Notes under the pieces: model-generated
What the model was told of the DNA's origin: nothing
What the model saw: only the letters and a program-made list of their open reading frames with translations
The model's database searches: none
Assembly: GCA_963793895.1 (NCBI GenBank)
Contig: CAWCBV010000004.1
Coordinates: 304,704 to 368,703, forward strand
Source of the DNA: an uncultured Gammaproteobacteria bacterium
GTDB taxonomy: Bacteria > Pseudomonadota > Gammaproteobacteria > Steroidobacterales > Steroidobacteraceae
Reading direction: 5' to 3'
DNA length: 64,000 bases
Made by a program: the position numbers and the translations under genes
Part shown: positions 35,471-54,313 of the stretch, piece by piece
How the letters are laid out: every line of letters starts with the position of its first letter
Numbering within the stretch: the first letter of the stretch is position 1

Positions 35471-35547
35471 GGAAAGGTAGCTCAGCTGGTTAGAGCACGG
35501 CACTCATAATGCCGGGGTCGAGGGTTCGAGTCCCTCCCTTTCCACCA
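35471..35547 (+). tRNA. tRNA-Met (anticodon CAT, elongator-like)
   Basis: 77 nt. The acceptor stem is ggaaagg/cctttcc. The anticodon stem-loop is cggca-CTCATAA-tgccg. The T-arm is gaggg-TTCGAGT-ccctc and CCA is encoded. Lysidine-modified tRNA-Ile2 cannot be excluded from sequence alone. Confidence 0.9.
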
Positions 35548-35726: not shown

Positions 35727-35972
35727 CTAGGCTTTCTTCAAGAGCCGGGTGATCCACACAAGGAGCACCGCACCTATGAAGGCGACGATAATCGAGCCGA
35801 CCATTCCTCCGCCGGGCCAGATACCCAACATTCCGAAAACCCAGCCCCCGACGATGCCGCCCAGGATTCCCAGGATGATGTCAACCAAGACGCCGTAGCC
35901 GCCGCCCTTCATGACCTGGCCTGCAAGCCATCCGGCAATGAGTCCCACGATAATCCAGTACACCAAACCCAT
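35727..35972 (-). CDS. GlsB/YeaQ/YmgE-family (transglycosylase-associated) stress membrane protein
   Basis: The ATG at 35972 has a GGAGGG RBS. The 81-aa product MGLVYWIIVGLIAGWLAGQVMKGGGYG... is the typical Gly-zipper small membrane protein. Confidence 0.85.
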   Translation of the reverse strand: MGLVYWIIVGLIAGWLAGQVMKGGGYGVLVDIILGILGGIVGGWVFGMLGIWPGGGMVGSIIVAFIGAVLLVWITRLLKKA

Positions 35973-36078
35973 AAATCGACCCTCCGTTTTTTGTCTTTTT
36001 GCAAAGCTAGACAGCGTTGCAGTTCCCAGCCCCAGTATCGCACTCCTTTGTGAAAAGGGGTGGACGGAACGCCGACGG

Positions 36079-36615
36079 TCAGCGATAAGACTGTTCGTGC
36101 AGGTCTGCGACATAGGTCAGCGCGCCACCTACGACCCGCGCCGGCGATGTCATCGGATGCACGACGTTGTGTTTAGCATCGAGGATGTGCACGACCTCTA
36201 TGCCGCGCACGCTGAGCGCGTCGGCGATCATCGAGCGATGGCAGCGCCACCAGACCGCTTCTGCGCACATTATTGCGGTGCGCGCCTGAGCCGCCAGGTG
36301 TATGAGCTGGCCCAGCCCCTGCGCGAATTCCGGACTCGACATGTAGTCGGCATAGCCGCGAAACGAGGCATTGCGCCAGGCTGTGTTCGGCGAATCGGGT
36401 GAAACCCGCCGACGGCCGCCCAGCGCAGGCAACCAGTCATAGCCGATGCCGTGTCCGGCGAGCGTCGTCGCAAGTGCTTCCCTGCCGTATTGCGGATATT
36501 TCCGCGAACCGGGGAAGCTGCGCACGTCGGCGATGGTCTCCATGCGGGCTCCGGAGAGCAGGCCGAGGAACTCCTCGATCGCACGCGTGGAGTGCCCGAT
36601 CGTCCAGATTGTCAT
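36079..36615 (-). CDS. DUF488-family protein
   Basis: MTIWTIGHSTRAIEEFLGLL...FPGSRKYPQY matches the DUF488 N-terminal signature. An alternative start at 36645 lies 3 nt after the upstream stop. Confidence 0.75.
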   Translation of the reverse strand: MTIWTIGHSTRAIEEFLGLLSGARMETIADVRSFPGSRKYPQYGREALATTLAGHGIGYDWLPALGGRRRVSPDSPNTAWRNASFRGYADYMSSPEFAQGLGQLIHLAAQARTAIMCAEAVWWRCHRSMIADALSVRGIEVVHILDAKHNVVHPMTSPARVVGGALTYVADLHEQSYR

Positions 36616-36648
36616 CCGCGCTGCTAAAGCCGCTGAGGGTGACATCGG

Positions 36649-36861
36649 TCAGTCGATCTTGTGCAGCGCCCCGTCTTTGTGCATCGCGACGTGGTCGGTT
36701 TTGTCGCTCTTGATCTCGTACTGTGGGTCATCCGCGCTGGCGTGGTGCGTATAACCCTTGTAGTCGGTGTTCTTCTTGTGCACCTTGATGATTTTGCCGC
36801 TGACGTGGCCTGCTTCCGAGTTCCAGCGCACGTGATCGCCTACTTTAAATTTTGTGGTCAT
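36649..36861 (-). CDS. DUF2945 (HVA1/TUDOR-like) small protein
   Basis: 70 aa. KVGDHVRWNSEAGHVSGKIIKVH...DDPQYEIKSDKTDHVAMHK is the typical family pattern. Confidence 0.75.
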   Translation of the reverse strand: MTTKFKVGDHVRWNSEAGHVSGKIIKVHKKNTDYKGYTHHASADDPQYEIKSDKTDHVAMHKDGALHKID

Positions 36862-37215: not shown

Positions 37216-37704
37216 CTAAGCGCGAGCAGTTCCGCGCCATGCCGCTTCGATGGCGGCGATGTCGATCTTTTTCATTTTCATCATCGCCTCGAACGCGCGC
37301 TTGGCGGCCGCACGGTCGGAGTCGGTCGTTGCGTCCAGCAGCGTCCGCGGGGTGATCTGCCAGGACAAGCCCCATCTGTCCTTGCACCATCCGCACGCGC
37401 TTTCGGTGCCGCCGTTGTTGACGATCGCGTTCCAGTAGCGGTCCGTCTCGGCCTGGTTATCGGTGACGATCTGAAATGAAAAGGCCTCGGAGTGCTTGAA
37501 CGCCGGGCCGCCATTGAGGCCGAGGCAGGGCACTCCAAGTACCGTAAATTCGACCGTGAGCACCTGTCCCTGTTTGCCGGCAGGGTAGTCGCCCGGGGCG
37601 CCGTGGACCGCTATCACGGTGCTGTCCGGAAAGGTCTGAGCGTAGAACCTGGCGGCATCCTCTGCTGTGCCGTCATACCAAAGACAAATCACGTTCTTGG
37701 CCAT
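37216..37704 (-). CDS. VOC-superfamily protein (PhnB / 3-demethylubiquinone-9 3-methyltransferase-like domain)
   Basis: 162 aa. Contains ICLWYDGTAEDAARFYAQTF...GWCKDRWGLSWQI, characteristic of this glyoxalase-fold family. Confidence 0.75.
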   Translation of the reverse strand: MAKNVICLWYDGTAEDAARFYAQTFPDSTVIAVHGAPGDYPAGKQGQVLTVEFTVLGVPCLGLNGGPAFKHSEAFSFQIVTDNQAETDRYWNAIVNNGGTESACGWCKDRWGLSWQITPRTLLDATTDSDRAAAKRAFEAMMKMKKIDIAAIEAAWRGTARA

Positions 37705-37897
37705 CGTCTGTCTCCGTTCGCTCGTCAGAGGGCGACCCGTCTAAGGCTACAACGAAACAGCAACCCGGGATTCGACCGCATTCGGCGGCAGTGCCAAGGC
37801 CGCGCCTGTCCTACAGTGAATTGCGCGCTTTGCCGACTTCCTGAGCGACGACGGAGTGCTCCCATTATGACTTATAGGGTCATCGACGGAGCGACTC

Positions 37898-38107
37898 ATG
37901 AAAACGATGACGTGCAGACAGCTCGGCGGGAAATGCGACCAACCCTTGTCGGCTGGCTCTTGGGAAGAAATGGTGAAGGCCATGACGAAGCACGTCATGG
38001 ACAAGCATCCTGATGTTGCGAAACAAATGGAATCAATGCATAACGAAGATCCAAAGAAATGGGGCAGGGCAATGAAGCCAAAATGGGATGCGGCGCCGGA
38101 AACCTAG
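37898..38107 (+). CDS. DUF1059 small protein
   Basis: 69 aa. MKTMTCRQLGGKCDQPLSAGSWEEMVKAMTKHVMDKHP is the typical DUF1059 pattern. Confidence 0.7.
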   Translation: MKTMTCRQLGGKCDQPLSAGSWEEMVKAMTKHVMDKHPDVAKQMESMHNEDPKKWGRAMKPKWDAAPET

Positions 38108-38141
38108 CGCACTTCCGTGGCTGAACGGAGCCCTGGGCGAC

Positions 38142-38281
38142 AAAGGTAGCTTCGAGCCGATCGATCCACATATGCACATATGCAAGAGTTCGAGCATATT
38201 AAGATCCTATTCGTTGTCGGGTTTGGGCCGATTGTCCGCGACGGACTCGGGTTGAGGGTTCGAGTCCCTCCCTTCCCACCA
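38142..38281 (+). pseudogene. Degenerate, interrupted tRNA-Met-like relic (att copy 1)
   Basis: 38248-38281 matches the tRNA 3' 34 nt with 3 mismatches. 38142-38151 (aaaggtagct) matches the tRNA 5' acceptor/D-arm start. About 95 nt of AT-richer DNA, including a catatgca direct repeat, separates the two pieces. Confidence 0.5.
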
Positions 38282-38463
38282 ATCAGATCAGAGTGATAGC
38301 GGTCGCCGCCGAGATTGGCTGGCCCGCTGTAAGCGTACCGTAAGCGCAGAAGTAGACCTTCTGCCGATCTTGATCACCGAATCCACGTATTCGCGGCTGC
38401 GTTTATAGTGCGCACGACACTCGCGATTCGGGTCGTCAGATACTGCCACCTTATGTGAACGCG

Positions 38464-40509
38464 CTACTGCGGCAGGTTCATCTTCTTGAGTAGTGCCTTG
38501 AAGCGCGGATCGGCGTGCAGGCGATCGAGCAGCAGGTCGACTTTGACCTCTGACAGGCCGCCATCGCGCTGTTGGTAGGCGCGCTCGAGCCACTCGAACG
38601 CCTTGTCCTTCTCGCCGCGCCATGCAAGTGCCTCGGCGACCTGATAGGCGCCATCCGCAGCATGCTTGGCGATCAACTCGTCGAGGGCCTGCTGGGACTC
38701 CTTCGCGTGACCGAGGCTGTGCTCGGCCATGGCGACGTCGGTCAGCCTGAAAAACTCGATACCGATCTTGCGCGCCGTCGCGAGTGCCTCGGCCGCGTTG
38801 CCCTCGAGCAGCCACAGTATGGCCATGTGATGCCCGCCGAAGCTCGACTCCGGATTGATCTCGAGGCAGCGACGCAATGCCTCGTGTGCGGCGGGGTAGT
38901 CTCGGTGGAATGTCAGGTATTGACCAAGGTTCGACCAAGCGATAGCGGACAATGGATCAATCTCCGTCGCCCTTCTTCCTACCGCAATGGCCTCTGGCAA
39001 CCGGCCGAGCCTTTCCAGCAGCGTAGCGTAGCTCCCCTGAACTTTGTCGGACGCGGGATCAAGCGCCAACGCCTTCTCCAAGTCCGCTTCAGCACCGGTC
39101 CAGTCCCAGCTGACGTTCATGCGCAGAACTCCGCGCGACGCATAGCCGTCGGCCTTCTGCGGCGCGAGGATAACGGCCCTCTCGGCGTAAGCCATCGCTT
39201 GCCTTCGGCCTGCTGCATCGCCGGTCGAATCCGCGAGGGTGTACTCCGAGAGAGCAAGACTGGCATAGGCCGCGGCGTAGTCGGAATCGAGTGCGATGGC
39301 TTTTTGGAACGCGTCGATCGCCCGTCGCCAGCCGTCGATGTTGCCTCGACTGTGAAACCGTTTGCCGAGCAGATACTGATTGTAGGCCTCGGTGTTTGAG
39401 CTGCGGTACGCGGCGACGGCCTGCGCCGGTACGAGCTTGGCTTTCAGCACCTCGACCACGGCGGCGGCGATCTCGTCCTGGACCTTGAAGATGTCCTTGA
39501 TGTCCCGGTCGTAGGTTCTTGACCAAAGGTGATAGCCGTTGTCGGCACGGATAAGCTGCACGGTCACCCGGAGCGTGTTGCCAGCCTTCCGCACGCTCCC
39601 TTCGAGAACGTGGGCGACGCGCAGTTTCTGAGCAATGCTCGGGACATCGTCCGCCTTGCCCTTGAAGGCGAACGACGAGGTGCGGGCCGGCACCCGCAGG
39701 TCCTGGACCTGCGCCAGGAGGTCAATGAGTTCCTCGCTCAATCCGTCCGAGAAGTACTCCTGGTCCTTCTTCTCGCTCATGTCGACAAACGGCAGTACCG
39801 CGACGGACTTCTCCGGGATCGCGACCGGTGGGGGCGTGCCGACCTGAGCAGTCGATGACGAGGTCTGCGCATCTGCTGCAGGCCGCTTCGACAGCCACAA
39901 CTTGTCCACCGCAAAGTAGCCGACGCCGATAACCGCGACTGCCGCGATCAGCAGCAGGACACCCGGCGTTGGTCGCGGCGCGGCAAGACTCGGCGCAGGC
40001 AGTCGGGGCGCAGCCCCAGTGGGCGGCACTGCGGGGCCGGCTGGCGATCTGACCTCTCCGGGTGCATGAGCCGCTTCGGGCGACAGCAGCCGCAAGACGC
40101 GCTCAACGAAGGCCGGTCGCGCGTCCCCGTTGTGCAAGCGAGTCCATTGCGCCACGGAGAACGCATCCGGCACATCCGCGTCCGTCTCGGGCGTGTCGTC
40201 GACGCAGACCGGCACGATGAACGGTCGGGTGCGCCCCATCAGGTGCGTGCGCTGATCCGCGAGCCTCCACTCAAGCCTGAAGTATCCTTCCGTCCTCTCC
40301 TGGGTATGGGACGAGATGATCGGGAGGAAGAGCGCGCAGTCCCGTATCTGGTGGCGAATCTTTTGGTCCCAAGCATCGCCGCCCCGAAGGGCGCTCTGGT
40401 CGAACCAGACTTCGATGCCGGCGGCTCGCAGTGTGTCGGCGATACGTCGCGCCGCCTCGGCATCCTGCGAGGCATAGCTCAGGAATACGGCTCTAGCCGG
40501 CTCGGTCAT
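38464..40509 (-). CDS. Transmembrane TIR-domain protein with a periplasmic TolB-N-like (COG5616-type) domain and TPR repeats
   Basis: The TIR_2-like N-terminus is AVFLSYASQDAEAARRIADTLRAAGIEVWFDQ...YFRLEWRLA. One TM follows (GVLLLIAAVAVIGVGYFAV). Then comes VLPFVDMSEKKDQEYFSDGLSEELI...LEGSVRKAGNTLRVTVQLI, followed by TPRs. The ATG at 40509 is preferred; the ORF track extends to 40668. Confidence 0.8.
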   Translation of the reverse strand: MTEPARAVFLSYASQDAEAARRIADTLRAAGIEVWFDQSALRGGDAWDQKIRHQIRDCALFLPIISSHTQERTEGYFRLEWRLADQRTHLMGRTRPFIVPVCVDDTPETDADVPDAFSVAQWTRLHNGDARPAFVERVLRLLSPEAAHAPGEVRSPAGPAVPPTGAAPRLPAPSLAAPRPTPGVLLLIAAVAVIGVGYFAVDKLWLSKRPAADAQTSSSTAQVGTPPPVAIPEKSVAVLPFVDMSEKKDQEYFSDGLSEELIDLLAQVQDLRVPARTSSFAFKGKADDVPSIAQKLRVAHVLEGSVRKAGNTLRVTVQLIRADNGYHLWSRTYDRDIKDIFKVQDEIAAAVVEVLKAKLVPAQAVAAYRSSNTEAYNQYLLGKRFHSRGNIDGWRRAIDAFQKAIALDSDYAAAYASLALSEYTLADSTGDAAGRRQAMAYAERAVILAPQKADGYASRGVLRMNVSWDWTGAEADLEKALALDPASDKVQGSYATLLERLGRLPEAIAVGRRATEIDPLSAIAWSNLGQYLTFHRDYPAAHEALRRCLEINPESSFGGHHMAILWLLEGNAAEALATARKIGIEFFRLTDVAMAEHSLGHAKESQQALDELIAKHAADGAYQVAEALAWRGEKDKAFEWLERAYQQRDGGLSEVKVDLLLDRLHADPRFKALLKKMNLPQ

Positions 40510-41197
40510 CGAGGCGTCGCTCCCTCGGCCGTGGCTCGGGGTCCTTCTAGGGGTGCCGCCGACCTCGCCCGCGAACGTCAGCTTATCCGAATTCGAGTGT
40601 CCGCTCTCGGGCCGGGCGAACGGGTGCTTGGGGTCGACAACGGCCCTAAGCGACAAATCGGCGGTCATCCCGACCGCACCCGGCCATCACCGGGAAGCTC
40701 AGCTGGGGCAAATGTGTGCCGATTGCCGACGTTCCGCGTTGCTATCTACCTGCGAAGCGTCGATCGGTGCGGCTTACGCATCTTACGGCCGGCGCGCTGC
40801 GGGTCCGGCGCTTAGCACAAATGAAAGACACACAACGTAGCCCCTGGCCGAAAGATCCTCTCGGATGCGATCGTGCCTTTGGCGAGCTGCTTGGCTTTCT
40901 TTTTGTGACGGCGATGTTTTAACGCGCGCATAACCCGCAGACTAGCCGGAGTATCCTTAACTGTTCGCGCTGGGTGGCGCTAAAAACACCAACATATCAC
41001 CGTCCCTGGAAGGACTGCCTCGAAGCCGTCACTCGCGGACTGCGAGAGTATTCAGATAGACTCGCCCTATGCGGTTGCGAACTAATCTTGACCCGAGAAT
41101 TGGCTCAATAACACTCACCAACCCGCCGCGATATTGAGCTTGAATTGTGCTCTCGATCGACAAGCGACCGAGGGCAAGAGAGCAGGAGGATAGTGCT

Positions 41198-41389
41198 ATG
41201 GCACGCGCGCCCATGAAACTGAATCTGAAGAAGGAAAAAATGCACAGGGACGTGGGTAAGGCTCCTGGGGCCAAGATCACGGAAGCTGACATCGCGAAGG
41301 AGAAATCGAGGGGCGGTGTCTTCGCCAAGCGCGCGCAATTTGCTGAGAACGCCAAGAAGTGGAATCACCCCGGCAAGGGGAAACGATAG
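41198..41389 (+). CDS. Small basic hypothetical protein (63 aa)
   Basis: An AGGAGG RBS sits 7 nt before the ATG at 41198. The Lys-rich product is MARAPMKLNLKKEKMHRDVGKAPGAK...KKWNHPGKGKR. It has a possible DUF3008-like flavour, but the family is not established. Confidence 0.45.
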   Translation: MARAPMKLNLKKEKMHRDVGKAPGAKITEADIAKEKSRGGVFAKRAQFAENAKKWNHPGKGKR

Positions 41390-41946
41390 CGCAAGACTTG
41401 CCGCGGCCACGATCCACGCCTTCCAGCCAGTCGTAACTGCGGTTCAGCGTAAAACGGTGGCGTCGAGATCTGCTGACCGTAGGTATGCCCTCAATCGGGT
41501 GAAAATCACGCTTTGAACTTCCCATCAAACAGTAGGAGTTCAAAATGTTGGCACCACCGTTGTATCTGGCCGCCGCGATCCCTGGAACTAGGGCAAGCTA
41601 GTCGGGCAAAAAGCACAGCTCAAGCTCAGGGACATTTGGGCGATTCGAGTTCGCCTTGAGCCGCGGGCTTGCCATGCGCTCCATAGGCGCGCAGCACCGA
41701 CGGTTCCAAGGTTGACCGCATCTGGATGCGGTTCGAAATCCATTGGGCCGGTTGACGGGTGACGAAGCTGACGCCAGCCGATCTGGTGCAGCACGCCAGG
41801 CTTCCGATCGCTGCACCTTGTAGGTCAGATTGACGCAAGAGCACGCCCGGCCTAACGTCTTTGTGCAGGCGATAGTTGAAACTGGATAATCTCGTTCTTA
41901 GATTTACTCAGATTCGTCAGTCTGAACGGCGTGGATAGGGCGAAGC

Positions 41947-42705
41947 ATGCCTGTCCTTGTCAAATTCTTTGAGTGGTTTGGCGAATTTGGGAGCTTCTGC
42001 GGCCGGGTGGCCCGCACGGGCTTTGTTCCTCCTTACGAGCGGCAGGAATTCGTCTGCCAGCTCGATGAAGTGGGAGCAAGATCGCTGCTGCTCGTGGCCC
42101 TTGCAGGAGCGGCCACTGGAGTGGTTCTTTCGCTCGAGACACGCGACAGCCTCTTGCGGTTTGGGGCCAAGCCATTGCTCCCCGCTGTCATTGTCATTTC
42201 CATCATCAAGGAAAGCGGCCCGATCATCACCGGCTTGATGGCCAGCGGCCGCGTCGGCGCGGGCATCGGTGCCGAATTAGCCGCGATGAAGGTCACGGAA
42301 CAAATCGACGCCATCGAAGCGTCAGCCGTAGATCCATACAAGTACCTGGTCGCCACGCGCGTCCTGGCCTGCGTGTTGATGCTGCCTTTGCTTACATTGG
42401 CGGCGGATTTCTGCGGCGTCCTGATGGGGTGGCTCGCGAACACCCTGGTCGAACCCATCTCCCTGCGCCGTTTCGTACAGGCGGGCTTCAGCAGCATGAC
42501 CTTCAACGACTTCCTGGCTCCGACGTTTAAGACCGCGGTGTTTGGTTTGATTATCGGCCTGGTGTCGTCCTTCGAAGGCATGCGCGCGCAAGGAGGTACA
42601 GAAGGCGTGGAACGCGCGGCGGCCAACTCTGTTGTCTTGTCTTCTATCTTCATCATTCTGGCTGATGTCTTGCTGGTTCGGTTGATTCTGGTGTTCTTCC
42701 CTTGA
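41947..42705 (+). CDS. MlaE-family ABC transporter permease
   Basis: 252 aa. Contains GPIITGLMASGRVGAGIGAELAAMKVTEQIDAIEA, the MlaE/YrbE signature. G+C is visibly lower than in the core. Confidence 0.88.
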   Translation: MPVLVKFFEWFGEFGSFCGRVARTGFVPPYERQEFVCQLDEVGARSLLLVALAGAATGVVLSLETRDSLLRFGAKPLLPAVIVISIIKESGPIITGLMASGRVGAGIGAELAAMKVTEQIDAIEASAVDPYKYLVATRVLACVLMLPLLTLAADFCGVLMGWLANTLVEPISLRRFVQAGFSSMTFNDFLAPTFKTAVFGLIIGLVSSFEGMRAQGGTEGVERAAANSVVLSSIFIILADVLLVRLILVFFP

Positions 42706-42712
42706 GGCAAGG

Positions 42713-43462
42713 ATGAAAACCAACACTGCTGCGCCAGCAATCCAGGTGAAGTCATTGCGCAAGTCATTTGGCGCTCAGGTTGTGTTGAACGCAATCGATC
42801 TGAAGGTAGCGCAGGGAGAGACTTTGGCGGTGCTGGGGCGGAGCGGCACCGGCAAGAGTGTCTTGTTGAAATTGATTGTTGGTCTGCAACAGCCCGACGC
42901 CGGTTCCATTTGCATCCACGGACAGGAGGTCGCCGGTATCGCACTGCAGCGCCTGAATGAAATCCGGCTCAAGATTGGCTTCTTGTTCCAGTCGGCAGCT
43001 CTGTATGACTCCATGACGGTCGCAGAAAACGTGGCCTTTCCGCTGAAAAGGCATAAAAAAATGTCCGACGCCAGCCGCAAGCAGCAAGTAAAAAGGCTGC
43101 TGGCGAGCGTCGGCATGGAGAAGGATTTGGACAAAATGCCGGCGCAGATTTCCGGGGGAATGAAGAAGCGTGTCGGCTTGGCCCGTGCTCTAGCGCTGTC
43201 GCCCGATATCCTGCTTTTTGATGAGCCCACCACCGGGCTGGATCCAATTACTGCCGGAGAAATCAGCGAACTGATACTGGGGTTGCAGAAGGAACACAAA
43301 ATGGCCTCGATTATCGTCACGCACGACGTTCAGGTCGCCCGTGCGGTCTCCGACCGCCTGGCGTTGATGCGCGATGGAAAAATCCTGATCGAGGGAACAT
43401 TTGACCATCTGCATAAGAGTCATGACAGGTTCGTTAGCCGCTTTCTTCAGCCGGCCTCGTAG
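42713..43462 (+). CDS. MlaF-like ABC transporter ATP-binding protein
   Basis: 249 aa with Walker A GRSGTGKS, signature ISGGMKKR and Walker B LLFDEPTTGLD. Confidence 0.9.
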   Translation: MKTNTAAPAIQVKSLRKSFGAQVVLNAIDLKVAQGETLAVLGRSGTGKSVLLKLIVGLQQPDAGSICIHGQEVAGIALQRLNEIRLKIGFLFQSAALYDSMTVAENVAFPLKRHKKMSDASRKQQVKRLLASVGMEKDLDKMPAQISGGMKKRVGLARALALSPDILLFDEPTTGLDPITAGEISELILGLQKEHKMASIIVTHDVQVARAVSDRLALMRDGKILIEGTFDHLHKSHDRFVSRFLQPAS

Positions 43463-44371
43463 GTGAAGATCATGTCGAGAACATTTCGGCTAGGGGCATT
43501 CATTGTTGGAACTCTCTTGATTCTCGCAACCGGTGTCTTTTTGATCGGCGATAAGGAGTTCCTTTTCAGCTCAACGTTTCCGCTGAAAGCTGATTTCCAG
43601 AATGTCGCCGGGCTGAGTTTAGGTGCCGACGTGCGAGTGGGTGGCTTACGCGAAGGAACTATTCAACGTATCGAACTGCCAAGCCGGCCTGATGGAAAAG
43701 TCACGGTCGTGATGAAGATGCACGACTCTACCAGGAATATTATTCGGAAGGATTCCGTCGCATCGATCAAGACGGAAGGACTGCTGGGCGACAAGTACGT
43801 GGAGGTCTCTTTCGGATCGAAAGAGGCGCCGCAAGTCCAGGATGGAGACGCCATTCGGAGCGTCGCCCCGGAGGATGTCGCCGAGGCGGCCAGTGCCGTT
43901 GCCGCGCAATCCAAAGCTGTGCTTACCGCTGTCCAGGAGGATGTGGAGGCACTTAAGGAAAATTTCCTTTTGCGTGGGTTTTTTAATAAACGCGGCTATG
44001 AGGACTCCGCCGATTTGAACAAGCACGCCATCTCGCGGTTGCCGACCAAACCGCATATCAAGGAGTTTGAGTACAGCGCGTCGGAACTCTTTGAGCAACC
44101 GGACAGCGCGAAACTGAAGAATGAGAAAGCCCTCAAGGAGGCAGGAACATTCCTGGAACAAAATAAGTTCGGATTAGTGGTGGTGGCGGCCTCCGAAGTG
44201 CTGGGCGATTCGGACAAGGAGCGGGTGCTGACGCAGGCCAAGGCCATGGTTGTTCGCGATTACCTCGCAGAGAATTTCAGGTTGGACGACACGCGAATCA
44301 AAACTATCGGGCTTGGGAAAACTAAGGCGATGGGTGACACCAGTAAGGTCAGAATCTTGATATATCCCTGA
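43463..44371 (+). CDS. MCE/MlaD-family substrate-binding protein with an extended C-terminal domain
   Basis: 302 aa with an N-terminal TM and an MCE domain (ADFQNVAGLSLGADVRVGGLREGTIQRIEL). The extra C-terminal stretch of about 150 aa has a weak OmpA_C-like pattern (LTQAKAMVVRDYLAENFRLDDTRIKTIGLGKT). Confidence 0.8.
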   Translation: MKIMSRTFRLGAFIVGTLLILATGVFLIGDKEFLFSSTFPLKADFQNVAGLSLGADVRVGGLREGTIQRIELPSRPDGKVTVVMKMHDSTRNIIRKDSVASIKTEGLLGDKYVEVSFGSKEAPQVQDGDAIRSVAPEDVAEAASAVAAQSKAVLTAVQEDVEALKENFLLRGFFNKRGYEDSADLNKHAISRLPTKPHIKEFEYSASELFEQPDSAKLKNEKALKEAGTFLEQNKFGLVVVAASEVLGDSDKERVLTQAKAMVVRDYLAENFRLDDTRIKTIGLGKTKAMGDTSKVRILIYP

Positions 44372-44409
44372 TCACTGGTGTCCGACACGTTTCATAGCAA
44401 TATCAGTTG

Positions 44410-44688
44410 GTTCGGAAGCCCAAATTCGGCGCCAAACCGTCCGAGCTCTCGCCGAACGTCCTCCAGCGCCAGTTCGCTGTGAGCAAGCCGAATAAGGCTT
44501 GGGTTACCGACATTACTACATCCGCACCTGGGAAGGCTGGCTCTACCTGGCAGTCATCATGGATCTCTTTTCGAGAAAGATCGTTAGCTGGGCAGTGGCG
44601 CCGAACATCCGAAAAGAACTCGTGCTCGACGCCGTGCTGATGGCGGTTCGCCCTCGTCGGCCAAGGAAAACCATCATTCATTCGGGGA
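44410..44688 (+). pseudogene. IS3-family transposase (OrfB, integrase-core start) fragment, frameshifted
   Basis: Two frames together read ...NVLQRQFAVSKPNKAWVTDIT / YIRTWEGWLYLAVIMDLFSRKIVSWAV..., the conserved IS3 rve-domain entry. There is no start and no DDE completion. Confidence 0.75.
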
Positions 44689-44810
44689 TCAAACAACATC
44701 TGCGGATCAAACGCCTCTTCGGCACTTCCGAGAACGCCGCGAAAAGCCAAATTTGGATCGCCGTCACCACTTACGTGCTGGTGGCGATCGTCCCCAAGCG
44801 GCTGAACGCA
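44689..44810 (+). pseudogene. IS4/IS5-type (DDE_Tnp_1) transposase C-terminal fragment
   Basis: KQHLRIKRLFGTSENAAKSQIWIAVTTYVLVAIVPKRLN resembles the conserved C-terminus of IS4-family transposases. It is fused in frame to the IS3 fragment. Confidence 0.6.
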
Positions 44811-45054
44811 AGTCCAGGGAGACTCTGGGCGATCCGTAGATTCCGTTACTCGCGTTGAACGAGGCGCGGATCAGCTTCAGACGCCGTGCGTTCTCGATTC
44901 ACCGACGGCTCTGTGGTTCTTTCAGCCATGCGTAATAGACGCTGTGGGTTACCTCCAGGACCCTGCACATCTGCCGCGCGTTGTACTGGTGGCGATGGGT
45001 CCTGATGAACTCATAGACGCGTTTCGTTCTTCCCGAACTGAACTTCGTGGACAT
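44811..45054 (-). pseudogene. IS3-family transposase N-terminal (HTH_21) fragment, inverted relative to 44410-44688
   Basis: The minus strand reads MSTKFSSGRTKRVYEFIRTHRHQYNARQMCRVLEVTHSVYYAWLKEPQSRR. After a frameshift it reads RRLKLIRASFNASNGIYGSPRVSLDLR, typical of an IS3 OrfB N-terminus. Confidence 0.7.
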
Positions 45055-45437
45055 CGCAGCTCCTTGGCGCTCTCTTGAGCGTCAAATCTACGTGTCCACA
45101 AAACCCTGGGAAGTCCACGCGCAGGCACCCGCCTCGAGCAGTGTCCGGCGCGACATTGCAGTCTTTCTCATGACTCATTTCTCCTTTTTTTATAGCCCGG
45201 GCTTCGGGTTGGTGGTGTCAATCTGTCCTCGGAGCGAGGGGACACGAGGACGAATTCGTTTCAATTGACGGGTGCTAATCGACAACTCGCGGCGAGTCTA
45301 AGAGGCCGACCGCAAGCGCCGCACATCTTTACGGTGTAGCGGTCGGATTCGACCATGAAGTGGATGTTGTTGAGGTGAACAGTGCTGCTGTGGGCGAGGT
45401 GAACGCGGAATTTTGTTCAATGTGAGGAACGGGCGCG

Positions 45438-45783
45438 ACGGCAGTTTTAGCTACACCAAGGAGACCCACCAACTCACACTAGGACCGATCGACCTGTCGG
45501 TGCAGGACAGAGAAACGATCAACGTCCCGGTTTGGGCCGGCGTAGGCGCGATAGTGGTTGGCGGCGTGCTCCTGCTCTTGGGAAAGGGAAAGCGCTGGTT
45601 TCTGATGGTCCCAGACTACTGTTGCAATGGAAAGACCAGTTGCTGCAATTTCAAGCGGCAGACGACGAGGGTATGCGCAGAAGTGAAGGGGCCGCTGGGG
45701 TTACAACCGACGTTTTGCGGCGGGTGATTAGTGCTATTTCTCGGATCGATCCTGACTTGAAGCACACGTCGCAGTCGTGCTGA
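45438..45783 (+). pseudogene. Truncated and fused duplicate of the 48124-48680 gene pair
   Basis: It is collinear with 48185-48680 but lacks the first 20 codons of the DUF3185-like gene. It also carries a deletion of about 170 nt that joins the two genes. Confidence 0.75.
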
Positions 45784-45881
45784 CCGTCATTTTTACGCGC
45801 TGATAGTGGCAATTCGCTCGGCTCGGGTTGCGCGTCCATCGCCATGATCTGCCGCTCGTTAGCCTGATAGTTCGCGATCTG

Positions 45882-46065
45882 CGCACGAGGGGCGGCAGCT
45901 ATCGGTGTGCGGGAGTTTTGCGGGGATCGGTCGTGCTCGGTTGTGCCTCGTCCTGCCAATTGCAACGGGCGCTCCTCGGCAAGTTGTTGAAATTACACGC
46001 TACCTTTTTCGTCGACCGCATTCATAATGCCGGGGTCGAGGGTTCGAGTCCCTCCCTTTCCACCA
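45882..46065 (+). repeat. Conserved arm plus tRNA-Met 3'-half repeat (att copy 2)
   Basis: 46022-46065 is identical to the last 44 nt of the tRNA. The upstream arm of about 100 nt is shared with 47470-47582, 48683-48781 and 57108-57221. Confidence 0.85.
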
Positions 46066-47469: not shown

Positions 47470-47627
47470 GAGGAGATTTGCGGGAATCAGTTGTGCTCAG
47501 TGGTGCTTCGTGGTGCCAAATTGCAACGGGCACCCCTCGGCAAGTTATTGAATTTACAGATTACCTTGAGCCAACAACCGCGCTCATAATGCCGGGGTCG
47601 AGGGTTCGAGTCCCTCCCTTTCCACCA
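47470..47627 (+). repeat. Conserved arm plus tRNA-Met 3'-half repeat (att copy 3)
   Basis: 47583-47627 is identical to the last 45 nt of the tRNA. The arm is shared with the other copies, with a 1-nt indel (gccaaattgc versus gccaattgc). Confidence 0.85.
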
Positions 47628-47923
47628 ATGACTTACGCGCACTTTCGATCACGCGCCACAAAGTTTGCTGCGGACGGCAGAGCCCATGCGTCCATGCAGT
47701 ACTCAATGATAGTTGGACCAGGGCAGAACCGGTGGCGCACATGGCGATCCATCGTCATGCGTGGCGCCTCGAGTGGATGCTATTCGGCTTGCGGTACGAT
47801 TTCCCCTATGTACGCTATCGCACAGACGGTGACGGCGCGGAGAGTTACTCGATAGGCGGAGCGGCGGACGAGACACTGAATCCCACTCGTTCGCGCTGAC
47901 GTTTCAAATAAGGAGAAGTTACC

Positions 47924-48070
47924 ATGCTCTACACGATTGCAGTCATCCTGGTTGTCCTTTGGCTTCTCGGTCTTGTCAGCTCCTACACCATGGGCGGCTT
48001 CATTCACGTCCTCCTGGTGGTCGCGCTCGTGGTGATCGTGATTCAAGTGATTCAAGGTCGACGCGGATAA
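47924..48070 (+). CDS. lmo0937-family small membrane protein (48 aa)
   Basis: This is below the ORF-track size cut-off. An AAGGAG RBS sits 8 nt upstream. The product is MLYTIAVILVVLWLLGLVSSYTMGGFIHVLLVVALVVIVIQVIQGRRG, the typical family pattern. Confidence 0.75.
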   Translation: MLYTIAVILVVLWLLGLVSSYTMGGFIHVLLVVALVVIVIQVIQGRRG

Positions 48071-48123
48071 CGACCCTGTGCCCGTGGTGGGGATCCGGTT
48101 GTCTCATTGACAGGAGAAGCGAC

Positions 48124-48345
48124 ATGAGCGCGATCAAGATCGCGGCGGCAGTGCTGATTGTGGCCGGCGTCCTGGGCTTGGTGTACGGCAGTTTTAGCTA
48201 CACCAAGGAGACCCAGCACGTCACACTAGGACCGATCGACCTGTCGGTGAAGGACAGAGAAACGATCAACGTGCCGGTTTGGGCCGGCGTAGGCGCGATA
48301 TTGGTTGGCGGCGTGCTCCTGCTCTTGGGAAAGGGAAAACGCTAG
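48124..48345 (+). CDS. DUF3185-like two-TM small membrane protein (73 aa)
   Basis: The internal ATG at 48124 has an AGGAGA RBS. The product is MSAIKIAAAVLIVAGVLGLVYGSFSYTKETQHVTLGPIDLSVKDRETINVPVWAGVGAILVGGVLLLLGKGKR. Confidence 0.65.
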   Translation: MSAIKIAAAVLIVAGVLGLVYGSFSYTKETQHVTLGPIDLSVKDRETINVPVWAGVGAILVGGVLLLLGKGKR

Positions 48346-48407
48346 TTCCTCAACGCGGGACGGGCGTTCGCGGCGCGGCTTGACGAGAGAGATCGCACAG
48401 GAGTCGA

Positions 48408-48680
48408 ATGATTGCGATGGACGTTGACAGAGCAATGAAGAATCCCGCCAACGTCTTTGACACGCCAGAGGCGTTGAGTGCATCGACAGAGCTGACCACT
48501 GAGCAGAAGCTCGCGCTCTTGTTGCAATGGAAAGACCAGTTGCTGCAATTTCAAGCTGCAGACGACGAGGGTATGCGCAGAAGTGAAGGGGCTGCGGGCG
48601 TTACAACCGACGTTTTGGGGCGGGTGATTAGTTCTATTTCTCGGCTCGATCCTGACTTGAAACAGACGTCGCAGCCCTGA
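48408..48680 (+). CDS. Hypothetical 90-aa protein
   Basis: An AGGAG RBS is present. The C-terminal 55 aa are conserved in the degraded duplicate at 45613-45783. No family is recognised. Confidence 0.45.
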   Translation: MIAMDVDRAMKNPANVFDTPEALSASTELTTEQKLALLLQWKDQLLQFQAADDEGMRRSEGAAGVTTDVLGRVISSISRLDPDLKQTSQP

Positions 48681-48682
48681 CC

Positions 48683-48811
48683 GCACGAAGGGCGGTAGCT
48701 ATCGGTGTGCGGGAGTTTTGCGGGAATCGGTCGTGCTCGGTTGTGCCTCGTCCTGCCAATTGCAACGGGCGCTCCTCGGCATCGAGGGTTCGAGTCCCTC
48801 TCTTTCCACCA
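48683..48811 (+). repeat. Conserved arm fused to a shortened tRNA-Met 3' repeat (att copy 4)
   Basis: The arm is nearly identical to 45882-45980. A clean deletion of about 60 nt joins it to the tRNA T-arm-to-CCA segment at 48782-48811, which has 1 mismatch. Confidence 0.8.
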
Positions 48812-48946
48812 GTTAATCAATTAGTTATGGTGATTTTGTGCCTGGATGCGCTCTGGCATGGCTTGGCAAGTCCATAGCAAGTCCACAGGGCAAGGAAACC
48901 GGATCGCAGAGGGCGCCATCGATACGAAAGCCCGTCGGGCCACAAC

Positions 48947-50059
48947 TTGCACAGGTCCACCTTTCGGATGCGGGGGCAGGGCGTGAATAACAAAACATCA
49001 CCGGCGGGTTGGCGCGTTTGGCTCTTAGCGATTGGTGTTCTATGGCTCGCCACGACTGTTGTTATTTGGTGGCGTCACGACTGGTATGCCCCCGGCACTG
49101 ATTCGACTACGGTCGCTGGTGCTATCGGATACTCGGCCGCATACGCCGCGATGGGGTTGCTAGGCAATGCACTGCTTGTTGCCGGCTTGATGTACGCGCC
49201 GCGCGCGTGGCGTGGCGTGCGCAAACTCCTGCCGCGCTACTTCCAGTTTTCCGCGAGCCGCCCCGATGCAGCGGCACGCAGCATGGGCGGCGCCTCAACT
49301 GCACCGTTAGGTGTCCAGGACACCTTATCGTGGTGTCTTGGGCAGGGGATTCACACGACGCGTTTGATTGGCCTGGCTCCACTCGAACAGTATGAAACTC
49401 ACGGCCTTTCCAGTCCGATTTCAATCTGGCCGTCTTGGAAGATGCATCTGCTTGTTTGGGGCGGCGGACCTCTTCTATTCTTTGCCAGTGTCGCTGCTCT
49501 GCTGGGCGCCAATGGTCTGAAGGCGAGATTCCTGGGCGGATTTGGCATTGTATTCTTTGGCTTTGCCTTGATCCTGTTTGCCAGCGCGTTGATACGGGGA
49601 CGCACCAAAGGCCTCGTTGAGTTCTCAACGCGCGGAATGTGGATTTCAACCCTGGGAATCACGTTGCCATGGCGCTCAATCGGACCGGCCTGGGTCAATA
49701 CAACCAAAAAGACGGACGAGGTCGTTTTTATCGTTCGGGACATTGACACATATGCCAAGAATCTCGACCCGTTGGCTGCACTTCATCTTCGTCTACTAAA
49801 GCGTACTCTCGATGTTGGAAAAGGTGGTCTGATCGACTTCGGAGTAAAGCGTGTGCTTCAGGCTGCAGGTGCAGGCGGCGAATTTAAGAAAATACAAGAG
49901 CAGCTGGAATATGCGCGAACGCAAGCAGCATCGGATTCATCTGCGATTTTGCTAAACATCCCCGCGCCATTTAGGATTGGAATCGCTCCGCAATCGCTTG
50001 TGGCAATGCTAAATGCGGAATACGCGAAGCATACAACCGCCCTTCGCACGGATGCCTAA
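48947..50059 (+). CDS. Hypothetical polytopic membrane protein with a soluble C-terminal domain
   Basis: 370 aa from a TTG start; in-frame ATG at 48968 and GTG at 48983 are alternatives. It has several TM segments. G+C is lower than in the core. No family is recognised. Confidence 0.5.
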   Translation: MHRSTFRMRGQGVNNKTSPAGWRVWLLAIGVLWLATTVVIWWRHDWYAPGTDSTTVAGAIGYSAAYAAMGLLGNALLVAGLMYAPRAWRGVRKLLPRYFQFSASRPDAAARSMGGASTAPLGVQDTLSWCLGQGIHTTRLIGLAPLEQYETHGLSSPISIWPSWKMHLLVWGGGPLLFFASVAALLGANGLKARFLGGFGIVFFGFALILFASALIRGRTKGLVEFSTRGMWISTLGITLPWRSIGPAWVNTTKKTDEVVFIVRDIDTYAKNLDPLAALHLRLLKRTLDVGKGGLIDFGVKRVLQAAGAGGEFKKIQEQLEYARTQAASDSSAILLNIPAPFRIGIAPQSLVAMLNAEYAKHTTALRTDA

Positions 50060-50077
50060 CCCTGCGTTCAAGCTACG

Positions 50078-50773
50078 ATGAAGGTCCAGCGGGCTGCAGT
50101 CGCCGACGCGCTCTCTCAGAGCCGGCTCGCCCGGCTGCCGGCGGATGTTACGGCCGCGCTCATCGAAGAGGCGGTGCTGGTCGACGTACCTGCCGGAGGC
50201 GTTCCAATCCGGCAGGGCCACGACGCCTGGGCGGGGTTACTCGTTAGCGGTCTACTGCGAGCTTTTCATACCACCGTCGATGGCCGGCAGGTCACGGTGC
50301 GCTACGCTCGGACCGGCGAGTTGCTCGCCATCAACACATTGTATGTGCCGCGCGCGGGCGCACTGGGCGTCCAGGCACTGACGGCCTGCCGCATTCTGAT
50401 GATGCGACCCGCAACTGCACGCTCAATCGCCGAGCGCGACCCCCGAGTCGCCAACCTGTTTGCGGAGGAGATCGCGTATCGCTTACTCATGATTGTGAAT
50501 GAGCTGGCCGGCAACACTTTTGGCACCATGCGCCAGCGTGTGGTGCGTCATCTGCTCGACATCGCCGCCGGTGCGTCCGGTCAGAGTCTACCGCTGGTTG
50601 CGCGGCTCACCCAGCAGGCGCTCGCCGACGACGTCGGCTCTGTTCGCGAAGTGGTGGTACGGCTGCTGCGCGAGCTGCGCGACGAAGGACTCATCCGCAC
50701 AGGACGTGACGAGATTGAGATCCTCGACCCGGATCGCCTGCACGCGGAGACGTTTCCGCGCGGGGAGTATTGA
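50078..50773 (+). CDS. Crp/Fnr-family transcriptional regulator
   Basis: 231 aa with a cNMP-binding-like beta-roll and a C-terminal HTH (LTQQALADDVGSVREVVVRLLRELRDEGLI). Confidence 0.8.
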   Translation: MKVQRAAVADALSQSRLARLPADVTAALIEEAVLVDVPAGGVPIRQGHDAWAGLLVSGLLRAFHTTVDGRQVTVRYARTGELLAINTLYVPRAGALGVQALTACRILMMRPATARSIAERDPRVANLFAEEIAYRLLMIVNELAGNTFGTMRQRVVRHLLDIAAGASGQSLPLVARLTQQALADDVGSVREVVVRLLRELRDEGLIRTGRDEIEILDPDRLHAETFPRGEY

Positions 50774-50795
50774 AGGGGCCGCCGCCCAGCCGTCG

Positions 50796-50809
50796 GGAAC
50801 AATTGTTCC
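50796..50809. promoter_or_regulatory. 14-bp perfect palindrome GGAACAATTGTTCC between the Crp-like gene and the oxidase gene
   Basis: The sequence is perfectly self-complementary. It shares GAACA/TGTTC half-sites with the palindromes at 58060-58096. Confidence 0.4.
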
Positions 50810-50883
50810 TCACCGCTGGCGCATCGGTCGCTGAAGCACACTCCGGCCTCGGCTAAAGTGGCCTCGCAAACCCCGGAGGCCCG

Positions 50884-52218
50884 ATGGAACTCATCGAACC
50901 CACGCACGCCGAGTACGACCGTGCCCGCAGAGTCTGGAATGGCGCCATTGACCGCCAGCCCGTGGCGATTGCCCGTGTAGCGAACGGCCGCGAGATCGCC
51001 ACGCTCCTGCGCCAAGCGCGTTCGACCGGCCAGAGCGTGACCGTGCGCGGTGGCGGCCACAGCGCCCCCGGCCACAGTGTTGCCGACGGAGCGTTGCTCA
51101 TCGACCTGTGCCGGATGGCCTCGGTCCAGGTGGATGCGGAGCGCGCTGTCGCGCGCGTGGGCGGGGGCTGCCTCTGGTCGCACGTTGACGCCGCGACGGC
51201 AGCGCACGGCCTTGCCACCACCGGCGGCCTCGTGTCGCACACCGGCGTGGGCGGCCTCACGCTCGGCGGTGGCATCGGCTGGCTGATGCGCAAGTACGGC
51301 CTGACCATCGACAACCTGCTGTCGGCCGAGGTCGTGCTCGCCGACGGCACACCGGTGCGCGCCAGCGAACTGGAGCACCCGGATCTATTCTGGGCGTTGC
51401 GCGGCGGAGGCGGGAACTTTGGCGTCGTCACCGAGTTCGAGTTTCGTCTACATCCCGTGCGCACGGTCATCGCGGGCATGCTCCTCTACCCGGCCAGCCG
51501 TGCCAACGCAATCCTAAGGTTCTATCGTGAGTTCACGGCAACGGCGCCGGACGAGCTCACCACGGTCTTCGCGTTTCTGACCGCGCCGCCTGCCCCGTTT
51601 GTTCCCGCTCCGCTGCAGGGCACGCCGGTCGTCGCGATCGTCGCCTGCTGGGCGGGGGATCTCGAGCGCGGTGCGGCGGCGCTGCGGCCCCTGCACACTT
51701 ATGGCCCGCCGGCCGTCGACCTGCTCGGCGAGATGCCGTACGTCGCGTTGCAGTCCATGCTCGACCCCGGCGCGCCTCATGGCCTGCACTACCACATGAA
51801 GTCGGCCAACTTCGCTGACCTGAGTGACGCAGCGATCGACGACATCGTGGCGGGCGCCGCACGCATGGCGTCGCCGCTGAGCCAGTTGCACCTCCATCAT
51901 CTTGGCGGCGCGATATCGCGCGTGGCCGCCGATGCGACCGCGTACGCGAATCGTGCCGCTGCCTACATCCTCAACGTCATCCCGTCGTGGTCCGACCCCG
52001 CCGATAGCGCGACCAATGTGGATTGGGCGCGCGCGACGTTTGACCGGGCTGCGGTGCATTCGAACGGGTCGGTATACGTGAACTTCCTCGGCGACGAGGG
52101 TCAGGACCGCGTCAAAGCGGCGTTCGGGGCGGACAAGTACGCGCGCCTCGCGAAGATCAAGCGCCAGTACGACCCCGACAACGTGTTTCGCTACAACCAG
52201 AATATTCGACCCGCGTAA
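50884..52218 (+). CDS. FAD-binding (PCMH-type) oxidoreductase with a BBE-like C-terminus
   Basis: 444 aa. Contains VRGGGHS, the FAD_binding_4 pattern, and the C-terminal YDPDNVFRYNQNIRP berberine-bridge-like motif. Confidence 0.85.
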   Translation: MELIEPTHAEYDRARRVWNGAIDRQPVAIARVANGREIATLLRQARSTGQSVTVRGGGHSAPGHSVADGALLIDLCRMASVQVDAERAVARVGGGCLWSHVDAATAAHGLATTGGLVSHTGVGGLTLGGGIGWLMRKYGLTIDNLLSAEVVLADGTPVRASELEHPDLFWALRGGGGNFGVVTEFEFRLHPVRTVIAGMLLYPASRANAILRFYREFTATAPDELTTVFAFLTAPPAPFVPAPLQGTPVVAIVACWAGDLERGAAALRPLHTYGPPAVDLLGEMPYVALQSMLDPGAPHGLHYHMKSANFADLSDAAIDDIVAGAARMASPLSQLHLHHLGGAISRVAADATAYANRAAAYILNVIPSWSDPADSATNVDWARATFDRAAVHSNGSVYVNFLGDEGQDRVKAAFGADKYARLAKIKRQYDPDNVFRYNQNIRPA

Positions 52219-52313
52219 TCGAACGGCGGCGCAGCAAGAAAACAGTCGCGTTACGGCATCTCGGTCGCGGCGCCGATTTCCGCAGCCGCGCGAGACGAAA
52301 AAGGAAGCAAATC

Positions 52314-52856: not shown

Positions 52857-52907
52857 GTGTCGTTTGTCGTGCGGCCGGTCGTGCTATCGAGGAGAGTTTT
52901 GCGTGGC

Positions 52908-52944
52908 AAGGGGTCCGGATTGGTGCTCACAATCTGGACCCCTT
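52908..52944. terminator. Long hairpin between convergent genes
   Basis: A 14-bp stem, aaggggtccggatt / aatctggacccctt, with one G-U pair and a 9-nt loop. There is no clear U-tract on either strand, so terminator function is tentative. Confidence 0.4.
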
Positions 52945-52987
52945 GAAATGAGCCTTGGCACGCCTGTCGCCACGCTAGCGCAAGCCG

Positions 52988-53356: not shown

Positions 53357-53710
53357 GGTCGTCTCCTGGATTGTCGATTGGGCGATAGAGCCGGGGTCGT
53401 TAGGAAGCGGTCCCGCGTCGGTATCCCTTGGATGCCACGCTGAACTTTTGCTGCCTTACCCAAACAGACACGGTCCGTGGATCAAACCCGACATCGGGGG
53501 CGGAAATTTGCGGACGCGGGCCATTTCCAAGTCCGAGCGGGGCTCAGTTCGGACTCATTCCCCTCTCGAAACAGGGGGTTGCCGAGGCCTGGGGGCGGGC
53601 GCGCAATCCTCGCCCTGCCGGGGCGAGTAGTTCGCCGCCATCGCCCATGCGGGCACCGTCAAGTTGGCTAATATCGGACCCGTGCACGTGGCAAGACACT
53701 GGATCAGTAA

Positions 53711-54262: not shown

Positions 54263-54313
54263 GCCATCACGACTGACCGTACGCGGGCCACCTGCCTGTC
54301 GCCTCAAAGATCG

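Follow-up and report, generated by a model that had tools for sequence, protein, structure and literature searches.

A predicted TIR enzyme as the probable output domain of a large family of single-pass bacterial membrane receptors

The subject of this analysis is a gene on the reverse strand (38464–40509) of a 64,000-nucleotide (nt) stretch of contig CAWCBV010000004.1, from an uncultured member of the Steroidobacteraceae; this whole stretch is referred to below as the window. The encoded protein comprises a TIR domain, a single transmembrane (TM) helix, a TolB-N-like domain and an array of TPR repeats, an order proposed in a preliminary description of the same DNA and borne out by both Pfam matches and the structural model. 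On balance, we lean towards interpreting the protein as a receptor in which sensor-driven clustering switches on the nicotinamide adenine dinucleotide (NAD+) chemistry of the TIR domain, and envelope-signal-gated NAD+ chemistry would be the best reading of the data. Thousands of such proteins are already present in databases under generic names. To our knowledge, the characterised bacterial TIR proteins are soluble anti-phage components or secreted virulence factors, and what appears to be new here is the use of a TIR enzyme, as predicted from the sequence, in the output role of a bitopic receptor. The TIR domain occupies the output position that in close relatives is filled by a Ser/Thr kinase, a cyclase or a ToxR-like DNA-binding domain. 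Our literature searches found no published description of the architecture or function of the TIR receptor, in agreement with the preliminary description, which had not recognised it as a described system; a survey of TIR diversity notes proteins combining TIR and TPR, not the membrane receptor form (PMC7075850).

The open reading frame (ORF) is intact over 38464–40668, and the preliminary description had allowed starts at both 40509 and 40668. We retain the former and discard the latter, taking the coding sequence, stop codon included, to be 38464–40509 with an ATG start (681 amino acids, aa), because full-length homologs are approximately 681 aa long, begin with MTEP and align with it end to end (identity up to 92%), and because a Shine–Dalgarno-like GAGGGAG lies about 10 nt 5' of the ATG at 40509. 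The in-frame 5' extension of 53 codons (40510–40668) is missing from nearly all homologs and is probably untranslated.

According to the full-length AlphaFold2 model (80 homologs as input, mean predicted local distance difference test score, pLDDT, of 81), the protein consists of the following parts, all encoded on the reverse strand. The cytoplasmic TIR domain (residues 1–147; 40069–40509) is identified by Pfam TIR_2 (PF13676, E-value 5.7e-23, 82.1–82.4 bits against the Pfam cutoff of 28, that is, above the curated gathering score), by matches to PDB entries, and by the model itself, in which the TIR blocks have pLDDT of about 67–93. It is followed by a disordered Pro/Ala-rich cytoplasmic linker (residues 148–182, 39964–40068; 146–181 in the model, with pLDDT below 50), the single TM helix (residues 183–205, GVLLLIAAVAVIGVGYFAV...; 39895–39963), evident from both the model and the translation, and a second disordered segment (residues 206–229). 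Outside the membrane, an alpha/beta domain with the fold of TolB-N, PelC, LpoB and the CadC N-subdomain (residues 233–358, or 235–358 in the model; 39436–39813), assigned by the model and Foldseek, precedes a TPR superhelix (residues 373–676; 38482–39393) with matches to multiple Pfam TPR families and pLDDT above 90, at the end of which lies the TPR_END_plus motif (~38485–38649; NCBIfam NF047558, 39.6 bits against the cutoff of 32). A weak FlgO-like Pfam match is located at the TolB-N-like position. The mean identity among the 80 homologs is 69% in the TIR domain, 76% in the alpha/beta domain, and 33% in the linker and TM helix.

The protein is likely to be a bitopic inner-membrane protein with the N-terminus inside and the C-terminus outside. 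No signal peptide was found in it, and the cytoplasmic location of the N-terminus is supported by the paralogous receptor kinase of the window, considered below, which has an ATP-dependent kinase domain at the position of TIR and a basic segment, RKFVRRNK, preceding its TM helix.

The TIR head is putatively equipped as an NAD+-cleaving enzyme. The candidate catalytic residue, Glu80 (codon 40270–40272, reverse strand; E133 in the 734-aa numbering), lies inside the motif EGYFRLEW, and in the profile-to-PDB alignment it falls on E77 of SPARTA TIR-APAZ, on the Glu of 7uxr (eyELng) and on that of TIR-STING (fEm). We take this position to be that of the Glu of catalytic TIR domains in helix alphaC (SARM1 E642, AbTir E208, SPARTA E77). 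Glu80 is retained in 79 out of 80 close homologs and is invariant in alignments A1 and A2, which include a second TIR type that is only 23–26% identical to the window head. The catalytic Glu anticipated in the preliminary description stands on profile alignment. Gly44 of the BB loop is also invariant, the loop signature D..L(R/K)xGD is present, and an aromatic residue, Tyr76, is found four positions before Glu80. The PDB sequences matched by the TIR head are those of PdTIR, AbTir, BtpA/TcpB, SPARTA TIR-APAZ, Cat1 and TIR-STING.

The periplasmic part is related to known proteins mainly at the level of fold. The separately modelled alpha/beta domain (pLDDT 82.8) has, according to Foldseek, relatives in PelC (1e-7), GNA1162, FlgT, the N-domain of TolB, LpoB and CadC (1.6e-4), with E-values from 1e-7 to 2e-4 and TM-scores mostly of about 0.5–0.65, lower for LpoB; all of these are periplasmic. 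A sequence search of this domain against the PDB gave no significant match, the relation being seen at fold level only. The full-length profile retrieved only TPR proteins from the PDB sequences, and the domains were then searched singly; likewise, the full-length Foldseek search was dominated by TPR proteins, the one useful result being the CadC periplasmic domain (E-value 4e-6 over ~300 columns). The CadC structures matched, by the N-subdomain and by the full-length model, are 3ly8 and 3ly9. As modelled, the sensor has the two-part layout of CadC, an alpha/beta subdomain followed by helical repeats. The bitopic CadC-type arrangement as a whole (cytoplasmic output, one TM helix, alpha/beta and helical subdomains) is likewise recognised at fold level only, and the sequence falls outside the CadC family, the NCBIfam CadC model giving an E-value of 2.5e-5 and 23 bits against a cutoff of 400.

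A homologous sensor is found in the same window in a Hanks-type Ser/Thr receptor kinase of 898 aa (54314–57010, forward strand; Pkinase E-value 1.4e-45). It consists of an N-terminal extension of ~89 aa, the kinase domain (residues 90–385), a TM helix (residues ~400–420; 55511–55573) and a sensor (residues 447–898; 55652–57007) that has matches to the same Pfam TPR families as the TIR receptor. Directly upstream, on the same strand, lies a gene for an ECF43-type sigma factor (53711–54262; PF07638 E-value 1.5e-44, TIGR02999 178 bits against the cutoff of 126), which agrees with the earlier suggestion that the kinase is coupled to an ECF sigma factor. At the position of the sigma2.2 phospho-Thr this sigma factor reads DTTA, the ECF43 consensus at the site being QTTA (PMC13147305). 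In Xanthomonas citri, PknS phosphorylates EcfK, and the periplasmic TPR domain of PknS is required for signalling and restrains autophosphorylation (PMC13147305). Given the adjacency of the two genes and the presence of the sigma2.2 Thr, the region 53711–57010 is, judging from its sequence, a further member of the known class of ECF43 sigma factors with PknS-like kinases.

The TIR receptor and the kinase are 59% identical over 479 aa in BLASTP (E-value 9e-164) and 60.5% identical over residues 232–681 in tblastn, and blastn of the shared sensor half gives 66% identity over 1357 nt, with only two copies in the window. The homology starts about 25 residues outside the TM helix, and the TM helices themselves are unalike; hence, of the shared TM and sensor half claimed previously, the sensor stands and the TM helix does not. 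The stretches described as near-identical are indeed present in both proteins (VLPFVDMSEKKDQEYFSDGLSEELI, AWRGEKDKAFEWL.RAYQQ), but VLPF...DQEYFSDGL...EGSVR is the consensus of the whole sensor family, and the shared C-terminus is the NCBIfam TPR_END_plus motif. Since these are family-wide motifs, they provide no sign of recent duplication, and a recent duplication of the sensors, or gene conversion between them, is ruled out by the nucleotide identity of 66% and the presence of just two copies. The two sensors are thus old paralogs, the sensor of the kinase being closest to TIR-type sensors. The formula "one sensor, two outputs" holds as far as extracytoplasmic homology with an ECF-coupled kinase is concerned, fails in the sense of an identical sensor, and understates the actual diversity of outputs.

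This diversity is seen in 66 full ORFs carrying the sensor: 27 have TIR_2 as the head, 13 have Pkinase, and four have Trans_reg_C, a winged helix–turn–helix (wHTH) domain like that of ToxR and CadC. Other heads are class III nucleotide cyclases (L049, L079), an XRE-type HTH domain (L061), and kinases with a variant HRD box, giving at least six head types (TIR of types a and b, Hanks kinase, wHTH, cyclase, XRE HTH). About 17 of the 66 proteins are headless and have a conserved two-TM anchor instead (..ELKRRNV.RV..AY...W...Q..). The N-terminal motif of the headless proteins, F.ELKRRNV.RV..AY...W...Q, forms a two-TM hairpin anchor and is followed by FAW.FE.TP.GLK; such loci are L030, L037, L041, L042, L045, L050, L058, L059, L062, L068, L075, L077, L078, L083 and L084.

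In the sensor region, head types intermix among nearest neighbours; e.g., the TIR protein L016 and the kinase L044 have sensors that are 66% identical. P0055 is 90–97% identical to the TIR receptor of the window from residue ~230 to the end and only 20–26% identical in the TIR domain, linker and TM helix, its head being a different TIR type that retains the catalytic Glu. P0054/P0055 (locus L004, 10001–11944) is a natural chimera with the breakpoint at residues ~225–230, just outside the membrane. It follows from comparison of these proteins that the unit of exchange is the head together with its TM helix, swapped against the periplasmic sensor at the periplasmic boundary. As kinases, cyclases and DNA-binding domains are found on this sensor too, TIR would seem to be a further signalling output among several. 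Genes of TIR-sensor proteins often occur as tandem or nearby paralogs (L004, 7843–11944; L086, 3590–10046; also near L017, L020, L023, L009, L035 and L040), with several copies per genome; L006 and L017 are both located on the chromosome OY970302.1 of a metagenome-assembled genome (MAG).

The family is very large and widely distributed, contrary to the initial impression of an unusual protein, and the copy in the window is unexceptional within it. At least 8000 candidates for the full protein, all with E-values of 1e-10 or below, were retrieved from an index of 5.8 billion proteins, and among the best 120 of these almost all contain TIR_2 and TPR, mostly at full length, with 57–95% identity; in the databases they are named "TIR domain-containing protein" or "TolB-like protein". 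When a single genome of each species was scanned, at least 600 stretches were obtained, and 598 of the 600 listed were confirmed. The matches listed come from Steroidobacteraceae, Lysobacterales, Burkholderiales, Opitutaceae and other Verrucomicrobiota, Acidobacteria, Eisenbacteria, Krumholzibacteriia and Zixibacteria, the nearest relative among them being from a soil MAG ("uncultured proteobacterium").

The TIR head alone has 1,385 matches with E-values up to 1e-30, and 3,490 with E-values up to 1e-10, among 1.84 billion cluster representatives, so that the head family comprises at least 1,385 clusters at 50% identity. The heads are 64–78% identical across proteins that are less than 50% identical overall. 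Of the 149 top-ranking representatives, 145 contain the clade motif EG[YF]F[RK]xE[WF], and nearly all those of at least 450 aa have a hydrophobic helix at positions ~170–190; 75 have the TolB-N-like domain, and in 37 the TM helix is followed mostly by TPR, without this domain. Thus, with almost no exceptions, this TIR clade is the cytoplasmic head of single-pass membrane proteins. About 20 of the 75 representatives with the TolB-N-like domain are ~1,100 aa long and have an extra TPR block of ~450 aa before this domain, which is then located at ~630–770 (P0129, P0136, P0142, P0145, P0148, P0154, P0166, P0180, P0182 and others).

Characterised TIR NADases need association, as the composite active site forms between protomers, and the four enzymatic or wHTH heads of this sensor (the Hanks kinase, class III cyclase, ToxR-like wHTH and TIR) are known to be activated by dimerisation or oligomerisation. 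In the mechanism that we propose, the CadC-like periplasmic sensor would bind a ligand or a partner in the envelope or periplasm, and the AbTir/PdTIR-like TIR domain would be held on a floppy linker inside the cell; the signal would most likely be carried by sensor-driven clustering or de-clustering, and not by a defined conformational change across the membrane. TIR heads brought together would start to cleave NAD+, resulting either in NAD+ depletion or in a diffusible signal derived from ADP-ribose. Signalling by proximity is favoured because the tethers on either side of the TM helix show disorder and little conservation, and because heads move together with their own TM helix. Both the clustering and the enzymatic output are inferred.

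Several observations weigh against this interpretation. The positive-inside rule is not decisive for the TM helix of the TIR receptor. Pairwise HMMER alignment placed Glu80 one residue off from the SPARTA Glu, and the profile alignment of Glu80 with SPARTA E77 requires a one-residue gap; moreover, in one of the 80 homologs Glu80 is replaced by Gln. Finally, none of the loci examined encodes, beside the gene, an effector or receptor that would respond to a nucleotide made by TIR, and therefore a diffusible signal would need an unlinked reader.

A more general proposal accommodates such a reader: TIR may be a regular, head-interchangeable output of bacterial transmembrane signalling, so that these proteins, in a family of at least 1,385 clusters, would be receptor NAD+-glycohydrolases or cyclases that convert a cue from the envelope or environment into an NAD+-derived second messenger for an unlinked effector, with a non-immune, housekeeping role and as a prokaryotic counterpart of the TLR topology. 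We offer this extension tentatively and consider it doubtful.

Among the rival explanations, the one that survives best, unlikely as we find it, is an anti-phage role, in which the periplasmic module would detect phage at the envelope and the TIR domain would deplete NAD+, the gene being a single-gene system carried by mobile islands. This agrees with domain-level PADLOC hits of the TIR head to defence models (Argonaute-associated TIR, TIR-SAVED, ThsB), with the location of the window gene in an array of islets at a tRNA gene (see below), with the lack of synteny between loci even at 90% protein identity, and with the presence of several paralogs per genome, whose sensors diversify. Single-gene TIR defence proteins do exist, SpbK being an example (PMC12847820). 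The genomic context of homologs points elsewhere. In the sample of 98 genes flanking 26 TIR-type loci, the sole recurring neighbours are more TIR and TPR paralogs (six out of 98), and PADLOC applied to these 98 neighbours gave sporadic single hits, generic domains and paralogous TIRs, with no recurrent defence genes. No effector reading a TIR product (SIR2/SLOG, Macro, TM and others) was seen in the window, in five annotated contexts or among the 98 neighbours, and the adjacent effector that characterises Thoeris is absent from the TIR receptor loci. A 90%-identical homolog is located beside peptidase M28, groESL, recA and alaS, and other contexts include tandem TIR-sensor paralogs, GST with SnoaL, and glycosyltransferases with thioredoxin. 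Thus, the abortive-infection-like response suggested in the preliminary description finds no support in the context of the 26 loci, the homologs residing in the housekeeping or miscellaneous surroundings that this description had itself named beforehand as speaking against the idea. The strong conservation of the TIR head and the use of the same sensor for ordinary outputs (sigma-kinase pairs, wHTH, cyclase) argue against defence as well, and no PADLOC model spans the whole architecture of the TIR receptor.

Another explanation, which we regard as quite improbable, is that the clustered TIR head is a non-enzymatic adaptor recruiting an unlinked cytoplasmic partner, with no NAD+ chemistry, as in metazoan Toll-like and IL-1 receptors. 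It would account for the TLR-like topology, the absence of a linked effector at the loci examined, and the high conservation of the TIR surface outside the active site (mean identity of 69%, with numerous invariant positions on the surface). On the other hand, retention of the catalytic Glu, of the aromatic residue at position −4 and of the BB-loop Gly is almost universal and extends to the second, unrelated TIR type; enzymes or enzyme-class TIRs (AbTir, SPARTA) are among the nearest relatives of solved structure.

The last alternative, inside-out action, in which the TIR domain would sense NAD+ or the metabolic state and the TolB-N/LpoB-like and TPR part would act on peptidoglycan synthases, Tol-Pal or polysaccharide export, is very unlikely: although the alpha/beta domain is related in fold to components of envelope machines (PelC, TolB, LpoB, FlgT), and the headless two-TM forms are so common (about 17 of 66) that the periplasmic module may have a function of its own, kinase, cyclase and DNA-binding heads are classical outside-in outputs, CadC, the solved match to both periplasmic subdomains, is a sensor, and floppy linkers are poorly suited to the transfer of force or conformation.

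The islets mentioned above are inserted downstream of the gene for tRNA-Met (CAT) (35471–35547, forward strand, identified by ARAGORN), the integration site bounding a region of lower GC content at third codon positions (GC3): the GC3 of genes is 0.82–0.90 up to 35.4 kb and 0.61–0.80 afterwards, the break coinciding with tRNA-Met. The last 25 nt of tRNA-Met recur five times downstream on the same strand, with zero occurrences expected by chance: at 38257–38281 (one mismatch; an islet boundary 183 nt past the TIR stop codon), 46041–46065 (with a conserved upstream arm of ~60 nt; the far end of the TIR islet), 47603–47627, 48787–48811, and 57242–57266 (232 nt past the kinase stop codon; the end of the ECF-kinase islet). 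Three of the five repeats reach ~47 nt of tRNA-Met plus a common non-tRNA arm of ~60 nt. These repeats are a signature of serial integration at a tRNA gene, and the gene is indeed island-borne, as was suggested initially: the TIR gene is the first in the islet 38282–46065, and the ECF-kinase pair is the last in the islet 48812–57266. No tyrosine integrase was found in the tRNA-Met islets, only an rve fragment, and the islets look like decayed remnants of integrative elements. The TIR gene is also monocistronic, as proposed, by gene geometry, since the nearest same-strand genes are more than 750 base pairs away, beyond an attachment repeat; a promoter and terminator scan of 37600–42000 gave counts that did not exceed the shuffled expectation.

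The neighbours of the TIR gene are PhnB-like, DUF488 and Transgly_assoc genes and an operon (41947–44371, within the TIR islet) of an MlaE permease, an MlaF-like ATPase and an MlaD-OmpA fusion, this operon being followed by the rve integrase-core fragment (44499–44858). The small first islet past the tRNA encodes Hva1_TUDOR (36649–36861), DUF488 (36079–36645) and a Transgly_assoc membrane protein (35727–36113). The region 47628–50059, between attachment repeats, has low GC content and no Pfam-recognisable genes, its 370-aa ORF (48947–50059) having no family match. Three regulators of the Crp/FNR family (cNMP_binding and HTH_Crp_2) occur within 9 kb (50078–50773, 57268–58008, 58239–58979), two of them divergent and located directly after the last tRNA-Met repeat. 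Further on, a 740-aa alpha-N-acetylglucosaminidase (59887–62109; NAGLU N, TIM-barrel and C domains), of a family best known from eukaryotes, adjoins a sugar/EamA-type transporter.

Should periplasmic sensing indeed activate the TIR domain, signalling derived from NAD+ would no longer be confined to immunity and would include general sensing of the envelope or environment. Such proteins would then provide a simple bacterial model for clustering-activated TIR receptors. They would also open an experimental route to the ligand of a widespread sensor module (of COG5616 type, with TPR), since the heads can be replaced by others better suited to reporter assays, for instance a kinase with its ECF43 sigma factor.

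AbTir, PdTIR and BtpA/TcpB (PDB: 7uwg, 8g83, 3h16, 4lzp, 4lqc) rank with TIR-STING (6wt6) among the sequences that match the TIR head best, with E-values from 1e-6 to 1e-9. The former proteins share with it the VF(I/L)S(Y/H)A box 1, the D..L..GD BB loop and the motif of an aromatic residue, three arbitrary residues and Glu. However, they are soluble, with coiled-coil or other N-terminal regions, whereas the receptor head is joined through a TM helix to a ~450-aa periplasmic sensor and, unlike them, has its own clade motif EGYFRLEW. Similarly, Thoeris ThsB, SPARTA TIR-APAZ and CBASS TIR-SAVED have the TIR fold and the catalytic Glu in common with the receptor head, but the receptor spans the membrane, and no adjacent ThsA, Argonaute or CD-NTase partner was found at the 26 loci.

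Metazoan Toll-like and IL-1 receptors follow the same logic, having a solenoid-repeat ectodomain, one TM helix and a TIR domain acting upon receptor association (PMC7075850). The order is reversed here, with the TIR domain at the N-terminus and a type II orientation, and the ectodomain is formed by leucine-rich repeats or immunoglobulin domains in Toll-like and IL-1 receptors, and by the TolB-N-like domain and TPR in the window protein. The bacterial TIR domain retains the catalytic Glu of the enzyme class, and nothing points to common descent of this architecture with Toll-like receptors. The window protein lacks the leucine-rich repeats and the type I orientation that, together with an adaptor-recruiting TIR domain, define Toll-like receptors; the likeness is one of topology and logic only.

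The pairs PknS-EcfK of X. citri and PknT-EcfP of Vibrio parahaemolyticus resemble the region 53711–57010 in combining a TIGR02999/PF07638 sigma factor that has the sigma2.2 Thr with a receptor kinase, and the window kinase is similar to PknS in its N-terminal extension, TM helix and TPR-rich periplasmic domain. The TIR receptor differs from these pairs in having neither a kinase domain nor a linked sigma factor, its sensor being paralogous to that of the window kinase. CadC (PDB: 3ly7–3ly9), a ToxR-like sensor of pH and cadaverine, combines a two-part periplasmic sensor with a cytoplasmic output, as the TIR receptor does; the helical part of the latter is, by contrast, a canonical and much longer TPR array, and the sequence relation between the two is marginal. 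The sensor family described here also includes wHTH-headed members, as in CadC.

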